In this document: in pieces, positions 5,098 through 61,361 of the stretch
How positions within the stretch are numbered: position 1 is the stretch's first letter
Layout of the letters: every line of letters starts with the position of its first letter
NCBI GenBank assembly: GCA_016204695.1
Contig: JACQKD010000008.1
Location: 33,178 to 97,177 of the forward strand
From: Candidatus Kaiserbacteria bacterium
GTDB taxonomy: Bacteria; Patescibacteriota; Minisyncoccia; Phycocordibacterales; UBA918
DNA length: 64,000 nucleotides
Direction of reading: 5' to 3'
Notes under the pieces: model-generated
The model's database searches: none
What the model saw: only the letters and a program-made list of their open reading frames with translations
What the model was told of the DNA's origin: nothing
Program-made: the position numbers and the translations under genes

Positions 5098-6534
5098 ATG
5101 TCTCCCCAAACAAGCAACAAGCCGCAGACTATCGTCGACCGTATCCGCGCGTATCGGCAAGGAGACACCCTGCCGAGCGTGGTGCTCGCCGCATATCTTG
5201 AGACGACGCGTTCTCGCGAGCCGGAAGTGCATGCGTACATCGATATCTTTGAAGATGTCGCCTCGCAAGCAGAACGCGCCGATGATCTCGTTAAAGAAGG
5301 CCGCTTCGAGGGTATGCCGCTTCTCGGCATACCCCTTGCGACCAAGAGCAACATTCTCATCAAAGGCAAGCGCGCAACCGCATGCTCGAAAATGCTCGAA
5401 AACTACATCGCGCCATACGATGCGACTGTCATTGAGCGTCTGCGAAAGGCGGGAGCGATATTTGTCGGCTCCACCAACATGGACGAGTTCGCGATGGGTT
5501 CTTCGACCGAAAAATCCTACTTCGGCCCGACACATAACCCTCACGATCTTGCGCGCGTTCCCGGCGGCACCTCCGGTGGCTCGGCCGCGGCGGTCGCAAT
5601 GGAGAGCGTGCCGGGAGCGATCGGTACCGACACCGGCGGCTCGGTGCGACAACCGGCGAGCTTCTGCGGCATCGTGGGACTGAAGCCCACCTACGGTGCG
5701 GTCTCACGGTATGGCGTTATCGCAATGGGTTCCTCGCTCGATCAGGTCGGACCGCTCGCGCATACCGTCGCGGATGCGGAAATACTCTACGATGTCATAC
5801 GTGGCGTCGATCCGTACGATTCGACCACATATCCGGATGGCGTGTATCCTGTCGTTGATACCAAGGATACATACCACATCGGCGTACCGCGTGATTTTCT
5901 TCGGAAGGGAATCGACCCGGACGTACTCGCGCGATTCGAAGCGTCGCTTGAAGCGCTTGCAAAGGCGGGTCATACGATCGTCGACATCTCTCTCCCGTAT
6001 ATGGAAAAAGGACTTGCCGCCTACTACATCACGGTGTTTGCCGAGATCTCGTCGAATCTCGCGCGATACGACGGCATGCGGTACGGTCTCCATGTGCCGG
6101 GAAAAGATCTGCTTTGCGATTATCTCGAAACGCGCCGGGAAGGATTCGGAAAAGAAGTCCGACGCCGTATCCTGCTTGGCGCCTACGTGCTTTCCTCCGG
6201 ATACTACGATGCCTATTATCGAAAAGCGGAGATTGTCCGCACTCTCATGCGGGAAGAGCTTGCCGCCGCATATCGCGATGTCGATATCATTGTTACTCCG
6301 ACTGTTCCGACTCCCGCGTACAAGATCGGTGAAAAAGAAGATCCGCTCTCGATGTATCTCGGCGACATATATACGGTGCCGGTAAATCTCACCGGCGTGC
6401 CCGCGCTTTCAGTCCCCATGGGGACGGTGGATCGCGACGGCAAATCGCTTCCGGTTGGTATACAATTCATAGGACCGCATGCCGGGGAAGCGCGTCTCTT
6501 TGATATCGGCAAGCGCTTCCAGGGGGAGCAATAG
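5098..6534 (+). CDS. gatA: Glu-tRNA(Gln)/Asp-tRNA(Asn) amidotransferase subunit A (amidase family)
   Basis: 478 aa. Amidase signature GGSSGGSAAAVA and the conserved Ser-cisSer-Lys context. Forms a gatC-gatA operon; gatB is not adjacent. Confidence 0.9.
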   Translation: MSPQTSNKPQTIVDRIRAYRQGDTLPSVVLAAYLETTRSREPEVHAYIDIFEDVASQAERADDLVKEGRFEGMPLLGIPLATKSNILIKGKRATACSKMLENYIAPYDATVIERLRKAGAIFVGSTNMDEFAMGSSTEKSYFGPTHNPHDLARVPGGTSGGSAAAVAMESVPGAIGTDTGGSVRQPASFCGIVGLKPTYGAVSRYGVIAMGSSLDQVGPLAHTVADAEILYDVIRGVDPYDSTTYPDGVYPVVDTKDTYHIGVPRDFLRKGIDPDVLARFEASLEALAKAGHTIVDISLPYMEKGLAAYYITVFAEISSNLARYDGMRYGLHVPGKDLLCDYLETRREGFGKEVRRRILLGAYVLSSGYYDAYYRKAEIVRTLMREELAAAYRDVDIIVTPTVPTPAYKIGEKEDPLSMYLGDIYTVPVNLTGVPALSVPMGTVDRDGKSLPVGIQFIGPHAGEARLFDIGKRFQGEQ

Positions 6535-6558
6535 AAGGAGTATTTTTCAAACATATTC

Positions 6559-7158
6559 ATGGCTCCACAGCACGACACGTCTTCATTTCTCCAGCTCAAT
6601 CTATTGGACTGGGTGGCAAAATTTCTTGACGGACTTTTCGGCAATACCAACGATCCGCAGTCGTTCTACCAGACGGCTTCCGATTGGTGGTACATCTTTT
6701 CCATAGCATCCTTTGCGTTCTCCGCGCTCCTGCTTCTCGGTATTGTCTATTCGATGATTCGTTTTTCCCAGCTTGCCGAAGATGAACAGGGGCTGTTGCG
6801 TGACGCCGAACACGCATACAGGACCGCTCATGCCGCCGCGAGCGACAATACCCAATGGCCGCAGATTCTCGCCCATGTCTCGTCGGACGATCCCAACAAC
6901 TGGCGTCTGGCTATCATCGAGGCGGATATCATGCTCGACGAACTGCTTGACCGCTTGGGCTACCAAGGCGCGTCGATCGGCGACAGGTTGAAGACCGTTG
7001 ACCCCCACTCATTCCATTCGATAGAAGATGCGTGGGAGGCGCATAAAATCCGCAACGCGATCGCGCATCGCGGCTCCGACTTCGTGCTCACCAAACGCGC
7101 CGCGCAGGAAGCGATCGCCCGCTACCAGCACGTCTTCGAAGAATTCAAATTTATATAG
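6559..7158 (+). CDS. hypothetical membrane protein with a C-terminal HEPN-like R-x4-H motif
   Basis: N-terminal TM helix (FSIASFAFSALLLLGIVYSMI). C-terminal helical domain contains HKIRNAIAHRG, i.e. an R-N-x3-H arrangement like the HEPN RNase motif. No close family recognised. Confidence 0.4.
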   Translation: MAPQHDTSSFLQLNLLDWVAKFLDGLFGNTNDPQSFYQTASDWWYIFSIASFAFSALLLLGIVYSMIRFSQLAEDEQGLLRDAEHAYRTAHAAASDNTQWPQILAHVSSDDPNNWRLAIIEADIMLDELLDRLGYQGASIGDRLKTVDPHSFHSIEDAWEAHKIRNAIAHRGSDFVLTKRAAQEAIARYQHVFEEFKFI

Positions 7159-7284
7159 AAACCGTCTAAAAATCCCATCTGCGTTGTTGCGTTCGTCGCT
7201 CGGAATCTCATCGCATGTTTATATATGCCTCGATTCCTCACCCCTCCGCGCCTAGCATCTGGAGCTTTTCAGACTGGTTTCTGG
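7158..7284 (+). repeat. family B MITE-like intergenic repeat, copy 1
   Basis: gaaaccgtctaaaaatcccatctgcgttgttgcg...ccgcgcctagcatctggagcttttcagactggtttc. The two ends are inverted repeats of each other (about 25 nt). Confidence 0.75.
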
Positions 7285-7345
7285 TTTCTTACGACATATC
7301 TTCTTGCGAAGAGGTTATTTTTGTCATACTATTTGCCCCATACGT

Positions 7346-7416
7346 AGCGGGGTGGAGGAGAGGTACCTCGGGAGGCTCATAACCTCCAGGCCCGGGTTCG
7401 ATTCCCGGCCCCGCAA
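7346..7416 (+). tRNA. tRNA-Met (anticodon CAU), initiator-like
   Basis: Manual cloverleaf: acceptor agcgggg/ccccgca, U8, D stem gagg/cctc, anticodon stem ggagg/cctcc with loop cuCAUaa, T arm ccggg-ttcgatt-cccgg. The 1:72 position is a mismatch (A:A) and there is an A11:U24 pair; both are hallmarks of bacterial initiator tRNA. CCA is not encoded. Confidence 0.7.
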
Positions 7417-7431
7417 CAAGGGAAAAGAAGC

Positions 7432-7476
7432 AAAATCACAAAGCCCCGGACGTAGTCCGGGGCTTTGTGATTTTGC
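7432..7476 (+). terminator. rho-independent terminator after tRNA-Met
   Basis: About 20-bp perfect stem aaaatcacaaagccccggac / gtccggggctttgtgatttt with loop gta, followed by a T-run. Confidence 0.7.
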
Positions 7477-7482
7477 ATACTC

Positions 7483-8055
7483 GTGCATATGAACAGAAAG
7501 ATAGTCCTCGCCTCGACATCGGCCCGGCGGAAAGAACTGCTTGAGAGGGTGGGTCTTGTGTTTGAGGTGGTTGGGAGCGACTACGAAGAGGACATGACGC
7601 TTGTTTTGTCCCCTGCGGAGCTTGCGAAATACCTCTCTCAAGGCAAGGCCGAAGCGGTGGCGCAGAAGTACCCGGATGCCATCGTGATTGCGGCCGACAC
7701 GTTCATCTGCTACGAAGGAAAAATACTTGGCAAGCCGTATACTCCTGAAAAAGCGCGAGAGACGCTTCATACCTTAAGCGGCAAAGCACACTCGGTCATT
7801 ACCGGCTTTACCATCGTCGAAACCAAAACCGGTGAATCGATTTCAGAGGCAGTTGAGACAAAAGTGTATTTCAGAGATTTGAGTGACCAAGAGATCGACG
7901 ACTATATTGCGACTGGCGAGCCGCTCGAGAGAGCAGGGGCCTACGCGATCCAAGGTATCGGCAAGGACCTCGTCGATCATGTTGAGGGTGACTACGACAA
8001 CGTAGTCGGACTTCCTGTTGCCGCCGTGCTACACGCGTTAAAAGATTTTGAGTAG
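7483..8055 (+). CDS. maf: Maf-like nucleoside triphosphate pyrophosphatase / septum formation protein
   Basis: 190 aa. N-terminus KIVLASTSARRKELLERVGLVFEV... and ...AYAIQG... are typical Maf family sequence. Confidence 0.8.
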   Translation: MHMNRKIVLASTSARRKELLERVGLVFEVVGSDYEEDMTLVLSPAELAKYLSQGKAEAVAQKYPDAIVIAADTFICYEGKILGKPYTPEKARETLHTLSGKAHSVITGFTIVETKTGESISEAVETKVYFRDLSDQEIDDYIATGEPLERAGAYAIQGIGKDLVDHVEGDYDNVVGLPVAAVLHALKDFE

Positions 8056-8175
8056 CATTTGAAGCAAGGTCATCAGAATGGTATTCTGACCCTGCATTTG
8101 TCGGCTGTAAGGGAACCTTGCGCCGACTGCGTTCGCAGATATGATGAAAGCGAGCTTTCATCATCCCGCTCACTT

Positions 8176-8249
8176 GTCGGCGTAGCTCAGCTGGTTAGAG
8201 CATCTCACTCATAAAGAGAAGGTCGGAGGTTCAAATCCTCCCGTCGACA
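8176..8249 (+). tRNA. tRNA with CAU anticodon (elongator tRNA-Met or lysidine tRNA-Ile2)
   Basis: Acceptor gtcggcg/cgtcgac (one G-U pair), D arm gctc-agctggtta-gagc, anticodon loop cuCAUaa, T arm ggagg-ttcaaat-cctcc. No CCA encoded; a T-run follows. Confidence 0.7.
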
Positions 8250-8331
8250 CACTGTTTTTGAACAGTTAACCGGTATACTCTGATTGGAGCCGTGGTACTT
8301 TCGCATATCAAAAGAGAAAGGGGTGTGAGTC

Positions 8332-9099
8332 GTGAATGTATGGATTGCTTCGTTACGTTTGCCTATCTGCCTATTGGCCAGCTTGCTGGCGATAGCCAGC
8401 TTCAGGACAGTCGGTTTTCGCATACCATGGGACGTAGTCGTAGCGGTATGTTGCATCGCCATAGCGGCCATGTTACAGAACGACTGGCGTGACCGGTATC
8501 ACGACATTCGCAAGCACAAAGTGGTGGCATCAGAACATCCGAGAGCGTTCTGTGGGTTAGTGCTTGCGTTTTGGGCTGGCTGCATTGTCCTGATTACTCT
8601 CGTTACGACCGGCAATACCAAAGCCGGTTTTGTACTTGCGGTACTTGCGCTGGCCGGTGCGCTCTATTCTGAAACACGCAAGATTTTGTTCATCCCAATC
8701 ACCTTGGTGTCTGCCGTGTCGGCAACCCCTGCACTTCTGCCAATGGCGTACGGCGCGACTCGGGGGAAACCGTTGCTACTGTTCTTGTCAGCCGCTTTGA
8801 TTATCTTCGGCAGAGAACTGACCAAGGATCTTGAGGATATGTATATCGACAAGGGATACAAGTTGACTATCCCGCTTGTGGCGGGGGAGCGGGAGTCGCG
8901 TGTTCTAGCCGCCGTAGCAATCGTCACAGGACTGATTGCCGGAGCAACAGTATCCTTATCTGTCGTGTTACCGGCCACTATTGTGCTTGTTGCGCTCATT
9001 CGGCTCCTCTCTGGCGAGGATCCGCGTAGGAGCAGGAAGCTACTTGACGGTGGAGTAGCATTTATTATCCTGATACTCATTATCACGGGAGGTGGATAA
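8332..9099 (+). CDS. UbiA-family polyprenyltransferase
   Basis: 255 aa polytopic membrane protein carrying the NDWRDRYHD (NDxxDxxxD) Asp-rich motif of UbiA prenyltransferases. GC content is somewhat below the neighbouring regions. Confidence 0.7.
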   Translation: MNVWIASLRLPICLLASLLAIASFRTVGFRIPWDVVVAVCCIAIAAMLQNDWRDRYHDIRKHKVVASEHPRAFCGLVLAFWAGCIVLITLVTTGNTKAGFVLAVLALAGALYSETRKILFIPITLVSAVSATPALLPMAYGATRGKPLLLFLSAALIIFGRELTKDLEDMYIDKGYKLTIPLVAGERESRVLAAVAIVTGLIAGATVSLSVVLPATIVLVALIRLLSGEDPRRSRKLLDGGVAFIILILIITGGG

Positions 9100-9130
9100 G
9101 GCCTTGTTGCACAAGGCCTTCTTCTTTGTA
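9100..9130 (+). terminator. rho-independent terminator
   Basis: Stem ggccttgt / acaaggcc around loop tgc, followed by ttcttcttt. Confidence 0.55.
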
Positions 9131-9261
9131 ACATTTCTATGCGGTATACTATGGAGACCATGGAAGGAAGTTCGGTGATATTTGTGCTCATATTTACATT
9201 CCTGATCGGTGCGGGGTTCGGCTTTTATTTGTGCACGATCTTCTGATCACCCGGTACTGCT

Positions 9262-9666
9262 ATGAAACAGGGATTTCTTGCCGAATTTAAGACGTTCGTT
9301 CTTCGGGGCAATGTCGTGGATCTCGCTGTGGCGGTCGTGATGGGGACCGCCTTCAACAAGATCGTCTCTTCGCTTGTCGAGACGGTCATCATGCCGGCAG
9401 TGAGTATGCTGTTCGGTATCGTCGATCTCTCGAGCTGGGCATTCGAGGCCGACGGAATATCCATTCGCTACGGCATCTTTTTGCAAAGCATTGTCGACTT
9501 CATACTTATCGCACTTGCCATATTCGTTGCGATCAAAGTGATGAACCGTCTCAAACACAGGCAAGAAAACGAACCGGAAACATTGCCGCCGCCACCCGAA
9601 GATATCCAGCTTTTGCGCGAAATCCGTGATATTCTCAACAAAAGGCCCGATAGTGATTTTTCTTGA
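9262..9666 (+). CDS. mscL: large-conductance mechanosensitive channel
   Basis: 134 aa. N-terminus MKQGFLAEFKTFVLRGNVVDLAVAVVMGTAF is near-canonical for MscL; second TM helix present. Confidence 0.85.
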   Translation: MKQGFLAEFKTFVLRGNVVDLAVAVVMGTAFNKIVSSLVETVIMPAVSMLFGIVDLSSWAFEADGISIRYGIFLQSIVDFILIALAIFVAIKVMNRLKHRQENEPETLPPPPEDIQLLREIRDILNKRPDSDFS

Positions 9667-10014
9667 CACTATTTTGACAATCTGCCCGAATTTCTTATCC
9701 ACAGTGGCGGTCCAAGAGAGTTGTGACATTTCTTTTCAGAAATCCGCGAAACGAGAACGCGATTCGGCACCTGGGAACGTACGCGGAAAGTTGCCCTCGC
9801 GTGCAATCGGCATATCTGTGGTAAAATCGATCTAACACACGAGCTTGTGGTGTGCTTGCGGGTCCGGTTCTTCTGCTTCCTATAGATACGTGCACCAAGA
9901 GAGTTGCATGGCTCTCTCTTCGACTCTCACCGCCTTAGTGTGAGACGGTCGACACTGAAGGGAATCCGGAGGGAGGGGGAGAATCGGGCATTTATATATC
10001 GTAATTGCGTCGGT

Positions 10015-17840: not shown

Positions 17841-17927
17841 GGAGGGTTCGCATAGCGGTCGAGTGCGCGACCTTGGAAAGGTCGTATGGGGGAAACCCCA
17901 TCGAGGGTTCGAATCCCTCACCCTCCG
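17841..17927 (+). tRNA. tRNA-Ser (anticodon GGA)
   Basis: Acceptor ggagggt/accctcc with discriminator G, anticodon loop uuGGAaa, long variable arm tatgggggaaaccccatc, T arm gaggg-ttcgaat-ccctc. Confidence 0.8.
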
Positions 17928-18347
17928 CAACAGCAATTTCTGAACGCTTCTGCGTTCTGAAATTGCTGTCCGGCATGGGATGGTCGGGATTCGAAAAGCG
18001 GAAGAAAACAGTCTGGGAGACTGTTTTCTGAGCTGGGGTCGCGAGTCGTTATGAGCGGAGCGAATTACGAACTCGTGACCGAATCCCTCACCCTCCGCAA
18101 AACAAGGAGACAAAGGCGTAGCATTTGGCGACTATGTTTTTGCGAGAGGGTGAGGGATTTGAAGGACGGACTGGAGCGAAGCGGAAGGAGTCGGGGTCGC
18201 GGAATTTTTCTGAGGATACGAAGAAAAATATCCGTGACCGAATCCCTCACCGGCGGCGCGCTGAAGTGATAATCTTTAATATCTGTCGGACGGAATCTGG
18301 CGTGGTATGCTGTCTATAATTAGCAGTATATTCACTTGTGATTCCTC

Positions 18348-33152: not shown

Positions 33153-33451
33153 TAGATGAGAAAGACTGCCAACCTAGGCTGTAGTAGAGCCGTATTTCCG
33201 TCGCTTCAAACCGGCGAGCTTGACAGACTGCTTTATCCATGCTACTCTCGCGACAGTTTTTGAGGGGTTCTTCAAAACCCAATCATTTTTCTTGCACTTC
33301 CTATTTCAGCGAGGCATTGAGTCCCGAATCATTTCGAGATTGAATGCCTTGCTGAAGAACAGGCAAGGAAACTATCCGGCGCAAACATGCGTACGGAGCG
33401 GCAGAGGACATCTTATGCCTCGCGCGAGGCGTGAGGGGTAAGGAGAAGCAG

Positions 33452-40520: not shown

Positions 40521-43500
40521 ATGGGCGATATTTTGAGTATGCAAGAAGGGAGAGAGATAAAAAAGACGCCAAGCGGGGAGAAAACCGACACTGCGAAGCG
40601 GGAGGAGGAAGTTTTGCAATTCTGGAAGGAGAACGGGATTTTTGAGAAGTCGCTTGCGAAAGAGGCGCCGAACGGAGAGTTTGTATTTTATGACGGGCCG
40701 CCGTTTGCGACGGGGCTTCCACACTATGGCCATGTGCTTGGCAGTACGGTCAAGGACGTTATTCCTCGGTATAAGACTATGTGTGGCTTCCATGTGCGGC
40801 GCGTCTGGGGCTGGGACTGCCACGGCCTGCCGATTGAGAACATGATCGAGAAGGAGCTCGGTCTGAAGTCGAAGAAGGACATTCTTGAAATGGGTATCGA
40901 CACATTCAACGAGGCCTGTCGTGCGGCGGTGATGCGGTTTGCCGACGAGTGGGAGAAATATGTGGATCGTATCGGAAGATGGGTGGAATTTCGCGGAGCG
41001 TATAAGACGATGGACAATTCGTACATCGAGTCCACATGGTGGGCTCTGAAGCAGATATACGAGAAAGGACTCCTCTATGAAGGTCGCAAGGTGCTCTTGT
41101 ACTGTCCGCACTGCGAGACCCCACTCTCGAAAGCCGAAATCGCGATGGATAATTCGTACAAGGAAGATCTAACGCAAGCAGTAACGGTAAAATTTAAAAT
41201 AGAAAATCCTGAAAAGCTTGGCCTCCAGGGAGACACATATCTTCTTGCTTGGACTACAACTCCGTGGACGCTTCCCGGGAATGTTGCCCTTGCTGTTAGA
41301 CCAGATATTAAGTATGTTCTCGTATGCACTCTGAATGTTTCAAAGCGTGCCAAAGAAGGTCTGGTTGAGTATGAGAATGTGATTATCGCCGAGGATATAT
41401 TTGAGAATCTTTATTCAGAAAAAAACACAGATCCTAAAAAACTTGGCTTTGGGTTAGTGTATGCACACCACCAGAAGGAGGGAGAGGAGCCGATTAAGGG
41501 GCCGGAGTCGGTAAAAACCTTTTTGGGGTCTGATCTAGAAGGTCTTTCTTATCGTCCGCTTTTCGATATCCCGAAAGTCGTTGCTCAACAAAAAGAGAAA
41601 GCGTTCACAGTTCTACCTGCGGACTTTGTCACGACAACAGAAGGTACTGGTATCGTGCATACTGCAGTGATATACGGCGAGGACGACTATCAGCTCGGAC
41701 TTGCAAACGATTTGCCGATGGTGCCGCTTCTCGACGCGAGTGGAAATTTCAACGACGACGCTCCTTCAGAAATTCGAAGACAGTATTTTAAAAAGGCCGA
41801 GAAAACAATAATAGAATATTTAGATAGCAAGAATCTAATCTTTACGGAAGAATACACACACAGCTATCCGCATTGCCATCGGTGCGGCACGGCGCTCATC
41901 TATAATGCGCTGGTTTCGTGGTTCATCAATATCCAAAAGGTCAAAGACCGGATGCTTGCGACGAACGAAGATATCAACTGGGTGCCGAGTCACCTGAAAG
42001 AAGGTCGGTACAAAAACATCGTGGAGAACGCGCCCGATTGGACCATTTCGCGCAATCGCTTTTGGGCATCGCCCATGCCGATTTGGAAAAATGCGGAAAC
42101 CGGCGCACTCACCGTCATCGGCTCGTTTGAGGAACTGGAAAAACACACAAAGCGTTCGGGCAATACGTACTTCCTGATGCGCCATGGGGAAGCACTTTCA
42201 AATACCACCAACACACATAATCACGATCTGTCGGTCAAAAATCCGCTTACCGAAAAAGGCAAACAAGAAGTCGAGCGTACGGCCGAAATGTTGAAAGACA
42301 AAAATATTCAGTACATTTATACGTCTCCGATGGAGCGTGCGCGGGAGACTGCGGCTATGCTTGCGAACACACTCGGTCTTTCCGCAGACCGCATCGTTGT
42401 CCACAACGGCCTGACCGAAGTGAACGGAGGAATCTTTGAGGGAAAGCCGATATCCGACTACCATGCGTATTTCGCAACACGAACGGAACGCCTCACGAAG
42501 ACGCCGGAGGACGGGGAAAATTGGATGGATACGAAACGTAACATCACGTCGGTCTTGTATGAAATCGAGGAGAAGCATGCGGGGGCGGGTGTCGTACTCG
42601 TGTCTCATAACGGCCCCCTCCAGATGCTACAGGCGGGCGCAAAGGGATTGGATACAGCAGAGACGGCGAAGATAATGGAAGACAAAGCGTACTTCGTTGA
42701 ACCGGGAGATGTCCGTGAGTTTGACTTTACGCCGCTTCCGCATAACAAAGACTACGAGCTTGATTTTCATCGGCCGTATATCGACGGTGTCACGCTCGTT
42801 GACGAAAGCGGTGCGGAGCTTGCGCGCGCGCCGGAGGTGATAGACGGGTGGGTGGAATCCGGCTCGATGCCGTTTGCGGAGCGACACTATCCGTTTGAGA
42901 GTACGGACGAGTTTGAGCCGAAAGAGAACAAGGCATATCCCGCTGATTTCATCGCCGAATACATCGCGCAAACGCGCACATGGTTTTACTACATGCACGC
43001 GGTTTCGGTGCTTCTTTTTGATAAGCCGAGTTTCAAGAATGTGGTGACTACCGGTACGATTCTCGCGGCTGACGGCTCGAAGATGAGCAAATCGAAGAAG
43101 AACTTTACCGACCCACTATTGGTTGTAGATCAATTTGGCGCTGATGCGCTCCGCTATTACCTTATGTCGAGCGTCGTGATGCAGGCGGAAGATATGAACT
43201 TCCGAGACGAGGAACTGCGCGAAGCGCACAATCGAGTCGTGCAGATGCTGTGGAATACGTACACATTCTATGACATGTACAAGGGCGACAGTCTTTCGGA
43301 GAAATTGCCGGACGAAAGCTCGTCGGTGCTCGATAGATGGATACTCGCGCGGCTCAATCAGCTGGTTGCGGAGACAACCGACGCTTTCGAAATATACGAC
43401 ATGCCCCGAGCGACGAGGCCGATACGCGAGTTCGTCGAAGATTTTTCCACGTGGTATATCCGCCGCTCGCGAGATCGGTTCAAGAGCGAGGATGCAAAAG

Positions 43501-44156
43501 ACCGCGCGTATGCTGTTGCGACGACGCGGTATGTGCTCTTGACGCTCTCGAAGCTCATCGCGCCCGTGATGCCGTTCATCGCCGAGAGTATTTATAAAGG
43601 AGCCGGCGGCGAGAAAGAAAGCGTGCATCTTGAGACATGGCCGGAGGCGGGGCAAGTTGACACAAAACTCATTGAAGATATGTCAGACGTTCGAAATATC
43701 GTATCTCTTGCATTGGAGGCACGAAGCAAAGCAGGTATCAAAGTGCGCCAGCCATTGGCGGGGGTTATTGTGCGTGTCGACTCGGTCATTTTTGAAAATC
43801 AGGCGCTCATCGAACTCGTCAAGGACGAGATCAATGTAAAGGAGGTGGTGTCTACGAGGACATGGTCCGAGTCGGTTGTGCTCGACACAACAATCACCGA
43901 ATCTCTCAAGCAAGAAGGCATGGCGCGAGAGCTTATGCGGGCGATCCAGGAGCTTCGCAAGACGGAGGGACTGGCGCCGAGCGACCGTATTGCACTCATC
44001 ATAAAAGCGCCGGAAGAGGGGAAGACAATGATTGAAACGCACAGGGCTGACATCATGCGCACGACGGGAGCGGACGTGCTTCTCCTTGCAGATACCGAGG
44101 GCACTCCGGTCACCATTGATGGCGCGCAGTACGTTGTTCGTGTGGAGAAGAAATAA
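40521..44156 (+). CDS. ileS: isoleucine--tRNA ligase carrying an inserted histidine-phosphatase (PGAM-like) domain
   Basis: HIGH (PHYGHV), CP1 editing region, KMSKS (KMSKSKKN) and anticodon-binding domain are all present. At 1211 aa it is long for IleS. Between WTISRNRFWASPMPIW and WVESGSMPFA sit about 190 aa with RHG, SPMERARETA and VSHNGPL motifs of the histidine phosphatase superfamily. Confidence 0.85.
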   Translation: MGDILSMQEGREIKKTPSGEKTDTAKREEEVLQFWKENGIFEKSLAKEAPNGEFVFYDGPPFATGLPHYGHVLGSTVKDVIPRYKTMCGFHVRRVWGWDCHGLPIENMIEKELGLKSKKDILEMGIDTFNEACRAAVMRFADEWEKYVDRIGRWVEFRGAYKTMDNSYIESTWWALKQIYEKGLLYEGRKVLLYCPHCETPLSKAEIAMDNSYKEDLTQAVTVKFKIENPEKLGLQGDTYLLAWTTTPWTLPGNVALAVRPDIKYVLVCTLNVSKRAKEGLVEYENVIIAEDIFENLYSEKNTDPKKLGFGLVYAHHQKEGEEPIKGPESVKTFLGSDLEGLSYRPLFDIPKVVAQQKEKAFTVLPADFVTTTEGTGIVHTAVIYGEDDYQLGLANDLPMVPLLDASGNFNDDAPSEIRRQYFKKAEKTIIEYLDSKNLIFTEEYTHSYPHCHRCGTALIYNALVSWFINIQKVKDRMLATNEDINWVPSHLKEGRYKNIVENAPDWTISRNRFWASPMPIWKNAETGALTVIGSFEELEKHTKRSGNTYFLMRHGEALSNTTNTHNHDLSVKNPLTEKGKQEVERTAEMLKDKNIQYIYTSPMERARETAAMLANTLGLSADRIVVHNGLTEVNGGIFEGKPISDYHAYFATRTERLTKTPEDGENWMDTKRNITSVLYEIEEKHAGAGVVLVSHNGPLQMLQAGAKGLDTAETAKIMEDKAYFVEPGDVREFDFTPLPHNKDYELDFHRPYIDGVTLVDESGAELARAPEVIDGWVESGSMPFAERHYPFESTDEFEPKENKAYPADFIAEYIAQTRTWFYYMHAVSVLLFDKPSFKNVVTTGTILAADGSKMSKSKKNFTDPLLVVDQFGADALRYYLMSSVVMQAEDMNFRDEELREAHNRVVQMLWNTYTFYDMYKGDSLSEKLPDESSSVLDRWILARLNQLVAETTDAFEIYDMPRATRPIREFVEDFSTWYIRRSRDRFKSEDAKDRAYAVATTRYVLLTLSKLIAPVMPFIAESIYKGAGGEKESVHLETWPEAGQVDTKLIEDMSDVRNIVSLALEARSKAGIKVRQPLAGVIVRVDSVIFENQALIELVKDEINVKEVVSTRTWSESVVLDTTITESLKQEGMARELMRAIQELRKTEGLAPSDRIALIIKAPEEGKTMIETHRADIMRTTGADVLLLADTEGTPVTIDGAQYVVRVEKK

Positions 44157-55658: not shown

Positions 55659-57784
55659 ACGGTGTTTCCCGCGTCGTCCTCACCCGGGGCCCGCAGGACT
55701 TCCCTCGGTCGTCCGCCGTCGGCCGGCCCGATCACGCCTCGTTCTTCGAGGAGGTCGACGAGTCGTGCCGCGCGCGAGTAGCCGATCCGCAGACGGCGCT
55801 GGAGGTAGGATGTCGAGGCCTTCCCGGCTTCGGTAACGAGACCTTTCGCTTCTTCGTACAGGTCGTCATCATCGTCATCGGCGACCGACGAGAAAAACGC
55901 ATCCGCCTCCACAGGATCTTTGCCGGCGCCCGAGAGATCAATCGCGTCGAGCTCCTGGGCGTCGTGCTGTTTGCGCAGGTACTCCGTGACTTTCTTGACT
56001 TCTCCTTCGGAAAGAAAGGCTGATTGGATACGCTTGGGCTTCGACATCTCGCCGGAGAGGTACAGCATGTCGCCCGCCCCCAGCAGTTTTTCCGCGCCCG
56101 TTTGATCGAGAATCGTGCGGGAGTCGATCTGCGATGCGACCTGCAGTGCGAGCCGAGTGGGGATATTGGCCTTGATCAGGCCGGTGATGACATTGACCGA
56201 TGGGCGTTGTGTCGAGAGCATGAGATGTATGCCGACCGCGCGGCTCATCTGTGCGAGCCGGACGACACATGCTTCAAGTTCGCGCGGATACGCTTGCATG
56301 ATATCGGCGAGTTCGTCGATGATAATGACGATGTACGGCAGGGGCTCGGGCATGTCCTCCGGCCCCTGCCCCTTCCGCGTCGCGTCGCGCGCGGGAAAAT
56401 AGACCGTCTCATGGTACGAGGCGAGATCGCGCACCCGTTCCGACTGGAGGATGTCGTATCGCCGTTCCATTTCTTTTGCCGCCCATTTGAGCGCGAGGAT
56501 GGTCTTCTTGGCATCGGTGATCACGGGGGTGAGAAGATGCGGGATGCCGTTGTAGAGCGTAAGCTCGACTCGCTTCGGGTCGACCATAATGAAGCGCAGT
56601 TGTTCGGGAGAATTGCGAAAGAGGAGCGAGGTTACGAGTGAGTGGATGGTCACCGACTTTCCGGACCCGGTGGTACCGGCGATGAGGATATGCGGCATCT
56701 GTGCGACATTTGCGAAGATGGCGCTCCCGGCGATGTCTTTGCCGAGCGCGACAAGGAGCGGCTTGGGCGAGTCCGTATATTCCGGAGAAGACAGGAGGGA
56801 CGCGAGACCCACCATCGACTTGGTCGTATTCGGCACTTCGATGCCGACGAGCGATTTTCCCGGTATCGGCGCTTCGATACGGACGGGGTGCGCCGCGAGC
56901 GCAAGCTCAAGGTTGTTTTGCAGGCCGACGATCTTTGAGATACGGACGCCCTCGGCGGGCTTCAGGGCATAACGGGTAACGGACGGTCCGATAGAGACCT
57001 CGTCCATCTCCACTTCGATATTGAAATTTTGGAGGGTGCGCTTGATGATGTTGGCGCTCGCTTTGACGTCGCCCACCCGCGCCGTACCTTTGTCTTTTTC
57101 AAGCAGGGAGAGAGGGGGAGGATCGTACGGACCGTAAAAATGGGACACCGCGAATGCGCCGCGCTTCCGTGATGCCGTATCAACCGCTTCCGGGATGTTT
57201 CCCCGTTGTTCGGGCGCTTCTTCCTCCGACGAGGGTATCGCCTGGTGAATGATCGGCTCGTCTATGATTGTCGGAGGCGCGGCCGGTTCATCTGTTTTTT
57301 CTTTTATGCCGAAACGGGGGACGGTAATGCCGATATTGAATGTAAGGAAGAGGCCGATGAGGGCGAGAGCGGAAAGGATAACGCTTGACGCGAGCGGACC
57401 GAGGAGGAAAGAAAAAGGCTTCGCGAAGATCATGCCGCCGATGCCGCCGGCGTGCGCGTCATAGAGACTCAACAAGCCGAGTAAGGCGAAGAACAGTAGG
57501 GCGACTCCCGCGATCTTTGCAATACCGACCTGCTCTTCCTCACGCGGATGCAGGAGTATGAACACATAGAGTGCGCAGGCTACCGGTGCGAGGAAAAATC
57601 CGACACCAAAAAGGTATCGCAGGGCGGTGTGAGCCATTTCTCCGGCGACTCCGGCGAGATCGAACGACGAGAGTATAAAAAAGATGCCAAGTACCACGAA
57701 CACGACGGCGGCTATCGCTTGTCGTGCGGCGGGCGCCACATCCTCAAAATAATTTTTTCGATACTGCTTCTTTCGGCGCGCCAT
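55655..57784 (-). CDS. ftsK: DNA translocase FtsK/SpoIIIE
   Basis: Four N-terminal TM helices, a linker, then an AAA+ motor with Walker A GTTGSGKS and a C-terminal gamma (winged-helix) domain. Confidence 0.9.
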   Translation of the reverse strand: MARRKKQYRKNYFEDVAPAARQAIAAVVFVVLGIFFILSSFDLAGVAGEMAHTALRYLFGVGFFLAPVACALYVFILLHPREEEQVGIAKIAGVALLFFALLGLLSLYDAHAGGIGGMIFAKPFSFLLGPLASSVILSALALIGLFLTFNIGITVPRFGIKEKTDEPAAPPTIIDEPIIHQAIPSSEEEAPEQRGNIPEAVDTASRKRGAFAVSHFYGPYDPPPLSLLEKDKGTARVGDVKASANIIKRTLQNFNIEVEMDEVSIGPSVTRYALKPAEGVRISKIVGLQNNLELALAAHPVRIEAPIPGKSLVGIEVPNTTKSMVGLASLLSSPEYTDSPKPLLVALGKDIAGSAIFANVAQMPHILIAGTTGSGKSVTIHSLVTSLLFRNSPEQLRFIMVDPKRVELTLYNGIPHLLTPVITDAKKTILALKWAAKEMERRYDILQSERVRDLASYHETVYFPARDATRKGQGPEDMPEPLPYIVIIIDELADIMQAYPRELEACVVRLAQMSRAVGIHLMLSTQRPSVNVITGLIKANIPTRLALQVASQIDSRTILDQTGAEKLLGAGDMLYLSGEMSKPKRIQSAFLSEGEVKKVTEYLRKQHDAQELDAIDLSGAGKDPVEADAFFSSVADDDDDDLYEEAKGLVTEAGKASTSYLQRRLRIGYSRAARLVDLLEERGVIGPADGGRPREVLRAPGEDDAGNTV

Positions 57785-57911
57785 GCGTGTGTAATATACA
57801 GGACAATACTAGCATGCCGTTCGATGGCGCGTCCCATAAAAATTCACAATGTACAGAAACACCTTCGAGGAGTATAGTACACGGAATAATGTCTTTTAGA
57901 CTAAAGGACGT

Positions 57912-58694
57912 ATGGATATAAAAAGAGGAATCAGCTTTTATAAATCGGACAACCTGTTGCTTTCAGACAGTGCCTATTATAAATATATTTTCAAAAAGAC
58001 AGAAAAAATAGTTTGTACTGTCTTTTATATTGTTGAACACTCCGATAAAGGACAAGATAATACTGCGTCAGTGTCCTTTATAGAATCGGCCAAGCGAACG
58101 CTTGATGCGGTGTTGAAGACGCTTTCGATCTCATCGTTTTCCGCCTATCAAGACCTCTACGCCTTTCTTCATGCGCTGGTGTCGCTTGAAAGCGCCACAA
58201 GAGTGGCACAGGCTACCGGGGTGCTGTCTGCAGAGATTGCGGACCTCCTGTCGCTTGAGATAAGCACGGTCGCCCGCGCAGTGCGACAGTATATCGCTCT
58301 CGAACGGAGCGACGCTCCCGGCATTGATTCATTTGGCGGTCTGGCCGCGGAGCCGGCGTCGACGATTGTCGGACGACCGGAGCGCGATCGCGCGAGAAGC
58401 GCGCAAGAACGCATGTACGATACTTCTCGCACACCCTCGATGACGTCGGTACAGAAGGGTCCGACTCCAAAAGAACAGACTTCATATAAAGGACAACATC
58501 TGGAACGGCGCAATGCCATAAAGGACATCTTGGCGTCTAAAGGACAATCAACTATAAAGGACATATGCGAAAAAATGCCTGAATATAAAGAAAAAACGAT
58601 ACAGAGGGAAGTTATATCCATGATAAAGGACGGTTTGATTGTAAAGGACGGAGATCGTCGATGGAGCAGGTATTCTCTCGCTCCCGGTGTGTAA
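57912..58694 (+). CDS. hypothetical protein with a C-terminal winged-helix-like DNA-binding domain (AT-rich islet)
   Basis: 260 aa. C-terminal ~70 aa (RRNAIKDILASKGQSTIKDICEKMPEYKEKTIQREVISMIKDGLIVKDGDRRWSRYSL) looks like a wHTH. The gene carries an array of TAAAGGAC motifs (see findings). Confidence 0.4.
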   Translation: MDIKRGISFYKSDNLLLSDSAYYKYIFKKTEKIVCTVFYIVEHSDKGQDNTASVSFIESAKRTLDAVLKTLSISSFSAYQDLYAFLHALVSLESATRVAQATGVLSAEIADLLSLEISTVARAVRQYIALERSDAPGIDSFGGLAAEPASTIVGRPERDRARSAQERMYDTSRTPSMTSVQKGPTPKEQTSYKGQHLERRNAIKDILASKGQSTIKDICEKMPEYKEKTIQREVISMIKDGLIVKDGDRRWSRYSLAPGV

Positions 58695-59309
58695 GCGAAA
58701 CTCTATAGTTGGCGGATGCCCTGACACGCATTCTTGCGCGTCTTTCAAACATGTGTGGTAATTGTGTCTTGATGTAAGGGGGGATTGAGGGGTGCGTCCC
58801 CATACCGTAGGGAGCGAGCTGTCCGGAGTGTGCGTGAACATCTCTCGACGGAGCGCTTTGTACAAAGGATATTCCCATGAGACCTTGATTGACAGGTGAC
58901 GATTCGTACCGTATTCTCGCCGCGTGTGCATAGGGTCGGTTTCCGGCCGTAGAAAGCCGGGGGTTGGGCCAACTATCCACAACCATAGGCAGTGAATACG
59001 GCGACGAGGGGAATATACTATTGTGAATCGCTCTTTGAAAATTACATAGAAGAACGAACGGAACGGGCGTCTTCGTGACGTCATACCGCATGACCTTTTC
59101 CTGTGCCGGATGCACTGACAGACACTCAGTCTCATATTTCGCAGCTAATCCGCCTGTGGCGTGTCGATACATAAACCACTCGCGGAATAGTGATGTAGTG
59201 ACTGGTCCCCGTATGTGCGGGGATACCTGTCGCTAATGTGAATTAATTCATATTATCAGTTCTTCATTAATAGTAATTGCCCGATGTACATCGGGTAATA
59301 GATATAGTT

Positions 59310-61361
59310 ATGACTATTACAAACAAAGTTGCAGGAAAGCTCGTAGTGGCTTTTGTTGCAGCAACAATGCTCTTCACGCTTGCGTTTGCGCCGATGGCGC
59401 GCGCGGCGACCAATGAAGAGCTTGAGGCGCAGATTGCGAAACTCCTCGCGGATATCGCGGCGCTTCAGGGACAGACTTCGAGCTCAAGCTCGCAGTCGTA
59501 CACCTTCACCAGCGACCTCACGGTCGGTTCAACCGGTGAAAGCGTAAAGCAGTTGCAGATGTACCTCAACAACAAGGGGTACGCTGTTGCTTCGACAGGA
59601 GTCGGTTCAAAGGGCATGGAGTCAATGTACTTCGGCATGTTGACGAAAGCTGCTCTTGCCAGGTACCAGGCCGCGATGGGCATCAGCCCGGCTGTCGGCT
59701 ACTTCGGCCCGATTACTCGCGCGAAAGTCAACGCGGACATGGTAGTCGTTGTAACGCCGCCATCGGATGATGACGATGATGACGATGATGACACCGCAAA
59801 TGACGATGATGACGATGATGACGACGATGATCTCTCGGGAGATTCCGGTTCGATCGATTCGTACGAGCTCTCATCCGGCTACAGCAACGAGGAAGTCGGC
59901 GAGGATGAGGAAGATGTCATCGTAGCCGGTCTCGATATCGAGAACAGCGACGGTTCGGACATCGAGATCACGGCGGTACGCCTCGTCTTTGACGAAGGAA
60001 CGGCAAACCGCGACTTCGACAAATATGCAAGCGAGGTATCGATCTGGCTTGATGACGAAGAGGTTGGTCGGGTAGACGCCGATGCGTTCACCGACGACAA
60101 CAACTGGACCAAGACCATCACGCTTGATGGCGCGATACTTGACATGGAGGAGACGGGTTCATTGTTTGCAGCCGTCTCGGGCGTATCGAGTCTCGATACG
60201 AACGATGCAGGTGAGACATGGACTATCGACTTCACGTCGGTACGCTTCCGGGATGCGGAAGGTTCTACCATTTCGGAAGACCCGACCGTAGGAGCGACGA
60301 CCTTCTCGTTTGAGACGTTCGCGGCTTCGGCTAACACCGAATTGCACATTACCGAGGGTGATGACGACGCAGAGGAGATCAACGACGCGCACATCATCAA
60401 TGTGCACGCGACCGACGATACCGATGATGTGGAGGTGCTTGCCTTCAACATCGAGATCGAAGGAGATTCCGATGTAAACATCGACGCTCTGCCGATCACT
60501 ATCACCACAGCGGAGGCGGCCAACGGCACCTTCGATGACCCGGATGATGTGATCGACTCTGTCGATCTCTACGCCGATGGCGAAAAGATCGGCTCGGAAG
60601 TACTTTCCACCGCTGACGCAAACGGCGACACGGAGGTAGTACTCTTCGATGATCTCGACTTCGATATCGAGGCGGGAAGCGACGTCGACTTTGTAGTCAA
60701 GGCCGATGTCGTAGATCTTGCTGATGATCTTGATGTCGGCGACACGATTCAGGTTACCTTCGGAGAGACGGAAACCGACCTCGCAACATTCGAGGCCGAG
60801 GATGAGTCCGGCGAGGAGCTCGTGGACGCCGACAAGATCGGCACGATCACTGGAGGCACGCACGAAGTTCGCGACGTCTTCCCGCAGATCGCCCTTGTTG
60901 GAACTCCGACGGCGGTCAAGACTTCGGGTGATTCTGGCGCTACCGCAAACGCGAGAAGCGATATCGGTACGTTCACGATTACCTTTGACGTAACCGGCGT
61001 TGACGGAGACGTCTTCATCGACGAGTCGGCACCGGCTGAAGGCGCTGGTACGGACGAGACCGACCTCAACATCGACGGTGTTGCCACATTCACGAACTCG
61101 ATCACAAGCATTGCCGGAGGTGCGAACGGTCTGGCTGAAGATGTCACCAACTCATTCCGAGTTGATGAGGACGAGACCAACCGCTTCCAGATCGTCGTGG
61201 ACATTCGCGACACTGCTGGTACGGACATGGTTGACGGATTCTTCGACGTGTCCATCGTCAGCATCCTGTATGCTTTGACCGATGTGGACGGCGACCTTCT
61301 GTACACTTCAGATATGGATCGCTTCCAGACGCCTGCGGTCTACCTGGATGACCTCGACTAG
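59310..61361 (+). CDS. secreted acidic surface protein: signal peptide, coiled coil, peptidoglycan-binding (PG_binding_1-like) domain, poly-Asp linker, acidic repeats
   Basis: Signal peptide (MTITNKVAGKLVVAFVAATMLFTLAFAPMARA), coiled coil (NEELEAQIAKLLADIAALQG), PG-binding-like segment (TGESVKQLQMYLNNKGYAV...GYFGPITRAKV), D9 and D10 runs, then about 450 aa of D/E/T/G-rich repeats. Confidence 0.65.
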   Translation: MTITNKVAGKLVVAFVAATMLFTLAFAPMARAATNEELEAQIAKLLADIAALQGQTSSSSSQSYTFTSDLTVGSTGESVKQLQMYLNNKGYAVASTGVGSKGMESMYFGMLTKAALARYQAAMGISPAVGYFGPITRAKVNADMVVVVTPPSDDDDDDDDDTANDDDDDDDDDDLSGDSGSIDSYELSSGYSNEEVGEDEEDVIVAGLDIENSDGSDIEITAVRLVFDEGTANRDFDKYASEVSIWLDDEEVGRVDADAFTDDNNWTKTITLDGAILDMEETGSLFAAVSGVSSLDTNDAGETWTIDFTSVRFRDAEGSTISEDPTVGATTFSFETFAASANTELHITEGDDDAEEINDAHIINVHATDDTDDVEVLAFNIEIEGDSDVNIDALPITITTAEAANGTFDDPDDVIDSVDLYADGEKIGSEVLSTADANGDTEVVLFDDLDFDIEAGSDVDFVVKADVVDLADDLDVGDTIQVTFGETETDLATFEAEDESGEELVDADKIGTITGGTHEVRDVFPQIALVGTPTAVKTSGDSGATANARSDIGTFTITFDVTGVDGDVFIDESAPAEGAGTDETDLNIDGVATFTNSITSIAGGANGLAEDVTNSFRVDEDETNRFQIVVDIRDTAGTDMVDGFFDVSIVSILYALTDVDGDLLYTSDMDRFQTPAVYLDDLD

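Follow-up and report, generated by a model that had tools for sequence, protein, structure and literature searches.

A dense array of a short DNA word was found in and around a single gene of Candidatus Kaiserbacteria, within the 64-kb stretch of contig JACQKD010000008.1 analysed here (positions 33,178 to 97,177, hereafter the window). The gene codes for a 260 amino acid (aa) protein with a predicted C-terminal winged helix-turn-helix (wHTH) domain, and the word, TAAAGGAC in its local form, is selected at the nucleotide level; gene, arrays and neighbouring genes are conserved together in Patescibacteria down to 22% protein identity. With moderate confidence we read the copies as double-stranded DNA (dsDNA) sites for the encoded protein, which would thereby repress its own gene and exert local control over the flanking promoters.

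A motif array embedded in a single gene

All nine copies of TAAAGGAC in the window fall between positions 57902 and 58649, eight on the + strand (starting at 57902, 58046, 58487, 58519, 58538, 58555, 58624 and 58642) and one on the − strand (58073), exactly at the positions listed in the original prediction, with none elsewhere in the 64 kb. When the whole window was shuffled with its dinucleotides preserved, the mean was 1.16 copies and the maximum 5. Eight of the nine lie within the open reading frame (ORF; 57912..58694) and the remaining one 3 nt ahead of its ATG. When the protein sequence was kept and synonymous codons were drawn from the window's own codon usage, 0.35 copies were expected in the coding sequence (CDS) against the 8 observed; none of 20,000 resamplings reached 8 and the highest value obtained was 4. 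The array is thus real, highly non-random and unexplained by the amino acid sequence. For the looser family motif A[AT]A[AG]GAC, 12 copies were counted in 57891–58650 and 24 in the other 63 kb of the window.

The two codon phases described at first were both confirmed, xxT-AAA-GGA-CAx being read as K-G-Q and ATA/GTA-AAG-GAC as I/V-K-D, and the third phase is occupied as well, by the variant AAAAAGACA at 57994. The region had also been described as AT-rich against a background of 60% GC. This holds for the two ends of the gene (29–37% GC at 57.85–58.1 kb and 33–45% at 58.45–58.65 kb) but not for the rest, as the window background is ~54%, the middle of the gene 58–67% and the ~600-bp non-coding stretch after the gene 46–57%. 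GC at third codon positions is 0.33 at the 5' end, 0.62 in the middle and 0.40 at the 3' end, against 0.64 for the window ORFs. The AT-richness of the gene ends is accounted for by the motif clusters themselves.

Conservation of the motif across the family

Homologous loci from Patescibacteria were compared, 79 for most counts and 80 for the survey of synteny and of the octamer. K-mer enrichment and a position matrix returned the family word T-W-A-A-R-G-A-C-A, of which TAAAGGAC is the local form, and in the 80 related loci the exact octamer is almost confined to the gene or to ~100 nt around it. The motif A[AT]A[AG]GAC reaches 11–16 copies/kb in two intervals counted from the start codon, −100 to +200 and +500 to +800, but only ~0.4/kb in the 3-kb flanks and 0.2/kb mid-gene, and WARGACA is 20-fold denser at the locus (9.24/kb) than in the flanks (0.46/kb). 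Two clusters are thus present: a 5' cluster covering the promoter, the 5' untranslated region (5'UTR) and the first 200 nt of the gene (mean of 4.8 WARGACA copies per locus), and a 3' cluster over its final 200 nt and about 100 nt past the stop (4.4 copies), with 0.13 copies mid-gene. Each locus holds ~10–13 copies, or 7–21 by a loose 6-mer count. Site spacing is irregular and orientation mixed, with no preferred spacing beyond what coding imposes.

A copy is present within 25 nt upstream of the ATG in 62/79 loci and within 160 nt past the stop in the same number. The conserved upstream order is a −35 box, a −10 box ((g)TATAtAGT), TGTCYT and then ARGACA 6–10 nt before the ATG; the copy just past the −10 box is a reverse one and that 6–10 nt before the ATG, present in 37/79 loci, a forward one, the two being typically 29–31 nt apart. 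Non-coding copies are found on both strands, both upstream (187; 129 forward and 58 reverse) and downstream (120; 66 forward and 54 reverse), and include the palindromes GTCCTTTA-TAAAGGAC and GTCCTTTA-ttt-TAAAGGAC.

The array is therefore kept in homologues, as two WARGACA clusters, down to 22% protein identity, and it is not made of a word that is common elsewhere: in ~105 kb of three genomes, clusters with at least 4 sites per 150 bp were detected only at the two ends of this gene. The two outcomes that the original prediction had named as refuting it, a word equally frequent across the genome and homologues without the array, have thus both been decided in its favour in the sequences covered.

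Synonymous codons are fixed at motif positions

Observed and expected codon shares were compared in a codon alignment of the 79 genes. Fixation at the motif positions was found with p values down to 1e-27: K28 is AAA in 79/79 genes (expected 52%), K29 AAG in 76/76 (48%), T30 ACA in 77/79 (40%), V37 GTC in 59/67 (32%), D217 GAC in 79/79 (59%), E227 GAA in 61/62 (53%), K228 AAG in 72/79 (48%), I238 ATA in 55/78 (33%) and R245 AGA in 47/71 (20%). Between the two N-terminal half-sites, synonymous choice is free. K28, K29 and T30 are inside the peptide used to fish the loci, while the other tested positions are outside the fishing patterns; AAA-AAG-ACA is also present in the window and in four loci fetched by exact-protein look-up (L081, L082, L083 and L085). 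Together with the codon resampling, the family-wide fixation supports the earlier proposal that selection acts on the nucleic acid and does not simply follow amino acid repetition.

Across the family the motif is translated as K-D where the G of GACA falls at codon position 1, as K-G-Q and K-R-Q/H where it falls at position 2 and as K-K-T and E-K-T where it falls at position 3, and it is this embedding in three phases that fixes codon choice. The amino acid swaps G to R and K to R track the R = A/G degeneracy of the motif: SKGQ of the window corresponds to YKRQ in L081, by GGA to AGA, and one gene has AAA-AGG-ACA, coding for K-R-T. YKGQ is the sole linker peptide kept in homologues at 22–28% identity and is written TAT-AAA-GGA-CAR, again TATAAAGGACA. 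Part of the "conserved residues" of the protein, for instance FKKTEK and, within the disordered linker, the YKGQ island, is hence explained by the embedded DNA sites. In L084, the most divergent member, the FKKTEK copy is gone, but the ATG is flanked by six new copies and the linker contains a palindromic trio, a pattern that looks like binding-site turnover.

Two other explanations for the codon usage were rejected. A Shine-Dalgarno-like or ribosome-pausing role of AAGGA does not fit the majority family variant, which is AAGACA, and an A-AAA-AAG frameshift signal at FKK would lead into a −1 frame that is closed after ~14 codons, codon invariance being accounted for by the motif.

The encoded protein

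The AlphaFold2 model (pLDDT 80) comprises a four-helix bundle (aa 20–133) and a winged helix (aa 193–256), both confidently predicted, joined by a disordered linker (aa 137–191). Full-length homologues extend down to ~22% identity: a profile search returned 4,250 cluster representatives (50% identity clusters), and a pattern scan of species-representative genomes returned 443 relatives, all from Patescibacteria-type metagenome-assembled genomes (MAGs) bar a few probably mis-binned records. Loci L011, L048 and L061 come from MAGs labelled Azotimanducaceae, Acidimicrobiales and Patiriisocius, yet carry the gene and its synteny, and are probably mis-binned contigs.

No HTH, Rep_3, ParBc, KorB or PF05635 match was obtained in Pfam at E<=10. 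The protein belongs to no NCBIfam family (ArsR/ArgR/Csa3 matches at E 0.01–0.1, far under the cut-offs) and to no PADLOC family (CARF-wHTH matches at E 1e-4 to 0.03, covering the wHTH part only), and PDB sequence and PDB profile searches did not retrieve any relative. The Rep and ParB/KorB families, put forward at first as possible relatives, have thus left no signature in the 260 aa. The sub-threshold ArsR/Csa3-type wHTH similarity is confined to the C-terminal ~60 residues, and the structural neighbours of this domain are generic DNA-binding wHTH domains. The peptide of the recognition helix, SEKT(I/L)QRE, is nearly invariant, with only Q231, R232 and E233 strictly so. A near-invariant recognition helix matches the invariant GACA core of the motif and makes the protein a plausible binder. 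A search of the literature for the motif words and for Patescibacteria regulators did not find anything relevant.

Genomic setting

One strand carries recA, then a small gene and then ftsK; on the other strand follow the putative regulator gene, 600–1200 bp of non-coding DNA and a gene for a ~700-aa PG_binding_1 protein. The regulator gene and ftsK are divergent and share a 127-bp intergenic region. As neighbours, ftsK was found in 75/80 loci and the PG_binding_1 gene in 71/80, and the arrangement is held down to 22% protein identity. The ftsK gene of the window codes for 709 aa without an intein; in L081, whose protein is 55% identical to that of the window, ftsK (6344–9826) codes for 1160 aa and includes an intein with a LAGLIDADG endonuclease (Pfam Intein_splicing, LAGLIDADG_3).

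Top-strand GC skew in the window is +0.027 for + genes and +0.027 for − genes, and in 51 loci it is positive on both sides (0.031 left, 0.034 right). No GC-skew switch occurs at the locus, in the window or in the 51 loci, which indicates that neither an origin nor a terminus is located there; the locus always faces the same way with respect to the leading strand. No homologue of the protein was retrieved from 72,556 plasmids and 50,697 phages. A regex scan of the window for ParA/ParB signatures was negative, and no partner NTPase, ParA-type ATPase or ParB-like domain was seen at the locus, the neighbours being ftsK and the PG_binding_1 gene.

A single conserved DnaA-box-like word, TWTCCACA, is present 200–400 nt past the stop in about 52/79 loci, always on the + strand (58973–58981 in the window, CTATCCACA; a perfect TTATCCACA in L083, L084 and L085), ~30 nt upstream of a −10-like TATAAT/TATACT. 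Being a single box at a place with no skew switch, it does not mark an origin, and could instead belong to a DnaA-regulated promoter for the envelope-protein leader.

DNA or RNA signal

If the inverted copies acted as RNA hairpins or as cruciform stems, the A/G position of one arm would be expected to pair with that of the other. At the R/Y position of the 5'UTR inverted pair, C-A combinations were found in 10/41 cases against 12.7 expected, and in close pairs (for example GTCCTTTATAAAAGAC) in 21/93 against 25.5 expected. This lack of R/Y complementarity, together with the two-stranded non-coding copies, favours recognition of dsDNA by a protein that accepts either purine at one position, and the RNA hairpin model is disfavoured. 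The 3' cluster of the window has direct copies only and no RNA structure (z = +0.7). Searched against Rfam, the whole window contains only three tRNAs, all outside the locus, and 57700–59400, at the gathering threshold and at E<=10, nothing but two chance-level matches.

Features of the locus

The features of the window locus are collected in Table 1. The promoter layout recurs upstream in the family as TTGCAA..N17..(g)TATAtAGT followed by TGTCYT, and tight palindromes are located at the place equivalent to 57890..57909 in L001, L081 and L083. At the IKD sites, GAC is used in 88/91 cases across the family.

Table 1. Sites and genes of the putative regulator locus, in window coordinates.
Feature	Position	Strand	Basis and remarks
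AGGACA half-site (TATACAGGACA)	57800..57805	+	Direct reading, pattern match; in the shared 127-bp divergent region; reads TGTCCT, 16–21 nt ahead of the ftsK start (57784, − strand)
Promoter-like TGTACA-N17-TATAGT of the regulator gene	57850..57878	+	Promoter scan, 9/12 match; −10 TATAGT at 57873–57878
Palindromic site pair TGTCTTTTA-gac-TAAAGGAC	57890..57909	.	Putative autorepression operator; occupies the ~25-nt 5'UTR, from the −10 box to the ATG at 57912
CDS, 260 aa	57912..58694	+	Identical to NCBI hypothetical protein HY416_02555, Candidatus Kaiserbacteria
Motif copy AAAAAGACAG	57993..58002	+	Encodes K28-K29-T30-E31, within the invariant FKKTEK; GACA starts at codon position 3
Inverted motif copy CTGTCTTTTA	58019..58028	−	Encodes T36-V37-F38-Y39; in an inverted repeat; GTC 59/67 and TAT 64/75 in family genes
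Motif copy ATAAAGGACA	58045..58054	+	Encodes D-K-G-Q, helix-bundle loop; DKGQ retained in the closest relatives and in L081
Inverted motif copy TGTCCTTTAT	58072..58081	−	Encodes V-S-F-I; 100% complementary to 58045–58054, 17 nt apart
Motif copy TATAAAGGACA	58485..58495	+	Encodes Y-K-G-Q in the otherwise unconserved disordered linker
Motif copy CATAAAGGACA	58517..58527	+	Encodes A-I-K-D-I; in this column (K204) only AAG, 38/46, is flagged
Motif copy TCTAAAGGACA	58536..58546	+	Encodes S-K-G-Q; L081 has TATAAAAGACA (Y-K-R-Q), amino acid altered and motif retained
Motif copy TATAAAGGACA	58553..58563	+	Encodes T-I-K-D-I, first strand and helix 2 of the winged helix; D217 site
Motif copy GATAAAGGAC	58622..58631	+	Encodes M-I-K-D-G; I238 ATA 55/78, D240 GAC 43/46
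Motif copy TGTAAAGGAC	58640..58649	+	Encodes V-K-D-G; most homologues have gtT-AAA-AGA-CAa (V-K-R-Q), the motif in a different phase; V243 GTT in 31/57 genes
First conserved promoter-like block after the stop, TTGCGC-N17-GGTAAT	58734..58770	+	Family alignment of the downstream intergenic region; TGTCTT at 58765–58770; 3' motif cluster directly upstream; presumed promoter function

Downstream region and other features of the window

The non-coding DNA at 58695–59309 (600–1200 bp in its equivalents in L001–L085) is conserved in the family, has no Rfam family match and gives the impression of several stacked regulatory elements. Among them is a promoter-like TTGCNA-N17-TANNNT, followed by an invariant element with fixed spacing, GTAAG(A)-N15/16-CGTC (58774–58798 in the window), which, as we read it, resembles an ECF-sigma-type promoter and for which no consensus RNA structure was found. 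A strong TTGACA-N17-TATTCT comes after it, at 58889–58917, and a terminator-like gcaCGCttTTTTT is present in the downstream stretch of many loci. A near-perfect ~21-bp palindrome (59240–59249, GAATTAATTC, within AATGTGAATTAATTCATATTA), ~60 nt before the ATG at 59310, is kept upstream of the PG_binding_1 gene in 50/52 intergenic regions and is probably the operator of another regulator or a 5'UTR hairpin. The downstream gene (59310–61361) codes for a ~690-aa protein with an N-terminal signal/anchor, a coiled coil and a PG_binding_1 domain; it includes an extreme aspartate run (DDDDDDDDDTANDDDDDDDDDD, about 59760–59830), is very acidic in the rest of its sequence, and could serve these cells as a major surface or S-layer-like protein.

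Elsewhere in the window, a motif-like group at 40561–41064 was rejected, as it consists of scattered chance matches in ordinary K-D/K-T codons inside the IleRS gene. The IleRS ORF (40521–44156) is unusually long (1211 aa), with an apparent insert containing an RHGE motif (FLMRHGEALSN...) typical of histidine-phosphatase/phosphoglycerate-mutase-like domains. Two tRNA-Met (CAT) genes are located ~800 bp apart, at 7346–7417 and 8176–8250, and a tRNA-Ser (GGA) gene at 17841–17928.

Discussion

Among the functions put forward in the original prediction, an operator array for the encoded wHTH protein gives the best fit, copies being placed by the gene's own promoter and ATG. In the mechanism that we propose, the winged helix would bind the 9-bp word and the four-helix bundle would likely act as an oligomerisation or sensor module. 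The ~55-residue flexible linkers would tether several wHTH domains of one oligomer, allowing cooperative binding at sites of irregular spacing and mixed orientation. Occupancy of the 5' cluster, which includes the transcription start, the short 5'UTR and the first ~200 nt, would repress transcription of the gene and might also affect the divergent ftsK promoter through the shared 127-bp region. From the 3' cluster, which directly precedes the first conserved promoter-like block of the long leader, transcription of the envelope-protein unit would be controlled, and the two clusters, ~600 bp apart, might be bridged into a loop.

Several observations weigh against autorepression and local control by the encoded protein. 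What links the protein to the motif is their co-localisation and co-conservation, and the recognition helix is essentially the same in all members, the most distant included, so that there is no protein-motif covariation to be read. At least 10 sites are far more than an autoregulatory operator normally needs, and no second target locus was found in the ~105 kb scanned, local-only sites being unusual for a transcription factor. The copies in the CDS are strongly strand-biased (424 forward, 90 reverse), as would also be expected of an RNA-level signal, and the three inverted pairs of the window 5' cluster fold as hairpins (z = −2.2), the first of which spans the region just ahead of the AUG. 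A signal in the mRNA was considered on these grounds, and on account of the copy located 6–10 nt before the AUG in 37/79 loci: hairpins would hide the translation start, or an RNA-binding factor, perhaps the encoded protein, would recognise the repeated UAAARGACA words, leading to translational autoregulation or an effect on mRNA stability. We regard it as distinctly improbable, since there is no compensatory covariation, C-A combinations being as frequent as chance and the inter-arm bases unconserved, the 3' cluster is unstructured, most family copies are without the Shine-Dalgarno-like core, and reverse copies are common in non-coding DNA even upstream of the −35 box, where they would not be transcribed. 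The foremost alternative, although unlikely in itself, is that the sites are genuine dsDNA sites of another binder, the gene being merely their host; candidates are a global regulator of Paceibacteria, a nucleoid protein of theirs, and the gamma domain of the neighbouring FtsK, itself a winged helix. FtsK proteins carry a wHTH that reads DNA motifs, FtsK_gamma, and in Streptomyces plasmids arrays of 8-bp repeats are recognised by TraB, which is FtsK-like; here ftsK is the divergent neighbour in nearly all loci, and the wHTH FtsK_gamma is present in L081–L083. However, a global factor or a KOPS-like signal would be dispersed, whereas in ~105 kb the sites occur only at this gene; the arrays follow the gene even where single positions turn over, and their placement around its own −10 box and ATG is classic for autoregulation.

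The encoded protein might also bind the arrays in an architectural role, the locus being a centromere-like or chromosome-organising landmark, or a loading site, by ftsK, as in parS/ParB, tubC/TubR and clt/TraB. This we hold to be unlikely too, and next in order. Many sites in two clusters are closer to centromeres and to flanking arrays of the P1/F type than to operators, there is a single locus per genome sample, and linkage to the DNA translocase gene is strict and orientation relative to the leading strand constant; on the other hand, no ParA/ParM/TubZ-type NTPase and no ParB CTPase domain are found at the locus, and the site positions are bound to promoters and the start codon. In its most developed form, which we likewise consider doubtful, a class-wide cis-acting chromosomal element would be coded inside the gene of its own reader, an oligomer bridging two ~5-site clusters beside ftsK as an organising, segregation or translocase-loading landmark of Paceibacteria/Parcubacteria, and the DNA code would dictate some invariant residues, including the island in the disordered linker. 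The earlier suggestions of iterons, of a replicon or chromosomal origin with a Rep-like initiator, or of recently acquired foreign DNA find some echo in the two flanking clusters, which recall P1 incC-repA-incA, in the AT-rich ends and in the DnaA-box-like word. They are nonetheless very improbable: spacing is irregular and orientation mixed, the skew has the same sign on both sides, the DnaA-like box is alone and on one strand, and no Rep_3, ParB or KorB match was obtained; the gene-motif arrangement had been thought possibly to recur on plasmids or phages, but no homologue of the protein was retrieved from those searched, and throughout the class the gene stays syntenic with ftsK and recA, with the position between ftsK and the PG_binding_1 gene kept down to 22% identity and the AT-richness arising from the motif clusters. 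Finally, a by-product of amino acid repeats or of codon-pair bias, with no nucleic acid function, could be entertained because most copies overlie the conserved peptides KGQ, IKD and FKKTEK, but it deserves practically no credence in view of the codon resampling, the fixed synonymous sites, the non-coding copies and the use of three phases.

Comparison with known systems

In function the proposed autoregulatory array resembles an autoregulated wHTH repressor, and in layout iteron replicons (P1, F) or centromere and clt arrays. Autoregulated repressors of the MarR/ArsR/IclR/Csa3 type share the wHTH, here with weak Csa3/ArsR-type profile similarity, and a palindromic site pair between their own −10 box and ATG. 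Operators inside coding DNA are also known, as in E. coli PurR, lac O2 and gal OI, and some of the present sites lie in coding sequence too. Nevertheless the protein has no significant profile match to the MarR, ArsR, IclR, DeoR or GntR families, and it carries its wHTH at the C-terminus, after the four-helix bundle and a linker of 55 residues. Instead of 1–3 operators with a fixed dyad, there are ~10–13 sites in two clusters, made of a 9-bp monomer-type word in any orientation and spacing, most of them inside the regulator's own ORF, class-wide and in three codon phases.

Iteron replicons with clusters on both sides of rep are represented by P1 (incC-repA-incA) and F (incB-repE-incC), in which, as here, the gene of a DNA-binding protein stands between two clusters of presumed sites, the upstream one over the promoter, from where it would bring about autorepression. 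The present locus differs in being a chromosomal core locus, in having a single wHTH and neither the WH1-WH2 Rep fold nor a Rep_3 profile, in its irregular 9-bp words as opposed to helically phased iterons of 17–22 bp, in the absence of a skew switch and in the sites inside the ORF. Short words read by HTH or wHTH proteins and clustered at or in the gene of the binder are known from the B. subtilis spo0J (parB) gene, which contains a parS site, from TubR-tubC and from the 8-bp TraB-clt arrays of Streptomyces plasmids; the present array would be alike in this and, as in TraB-clt, adjoins a DNA-translocase gene. Unlike ParB-parS, it comes with neither a ParB N-terminal domain nor a partner ATPase/GTPase, its sites are on promoters and the start codon, and the word is an asymmetric 9-mer with ~10–13 copies in two clusters at one locus, not a few 16-bp palindromic parS sites, dispersed and origin-proximal.

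Avd and the "23S rRNA intervening-sequence" four-helix-bundle proteins (8ub7_B, 4dwl_A, 2rld_A, 2gsc_A) are also among the closest known systems, but the protein has no sequence profile match to that family (PF05635) at E<=10, and no PDB sequence match with the family profile. MraZ, an oligomeric regulator acting on a short direct-repeat array before the division and cell-wall cluster, is similar in concept, as a conserved small regulator by division/envelope genes with many DNA-binding units per oligomer; its fold is unrelated (a MraZ/AbrB-like swapped hairpin as against four-helix bundle and wHTH), and its repeats are few, regular and non-coding. What is unusual here is the density of the sites, their placement in the protein's own ORF in three phases, their class-wide conservation and the imprint that they leave on the protein sequence.

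Significance

To our knowledge, binding sites have been described for almost no transcription factor of these uncultivated, ultra-small bacteria, and a very large uncharacterised family of putative Patescibacteria regulators now gains a concrete, testable recognition motif and a set of targets. The locus offers a clean natural case of dual coding, in which a dense array has been held for a very long time inside an ORF and in all three phases. The residues whose conservation is produced by the array, FKKTEK and the linker YKGQ, are a caution for calls of functional residues that are based on conservation. Should the arrays prove to be architectural, they would represent a new element of chromosome organisation. 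In coupling the putative regulator to ftsK and to a major peptidoglycan-binding envelope gene, the locus may give a possible entry to the control of division and envelope in Patescibacteria.

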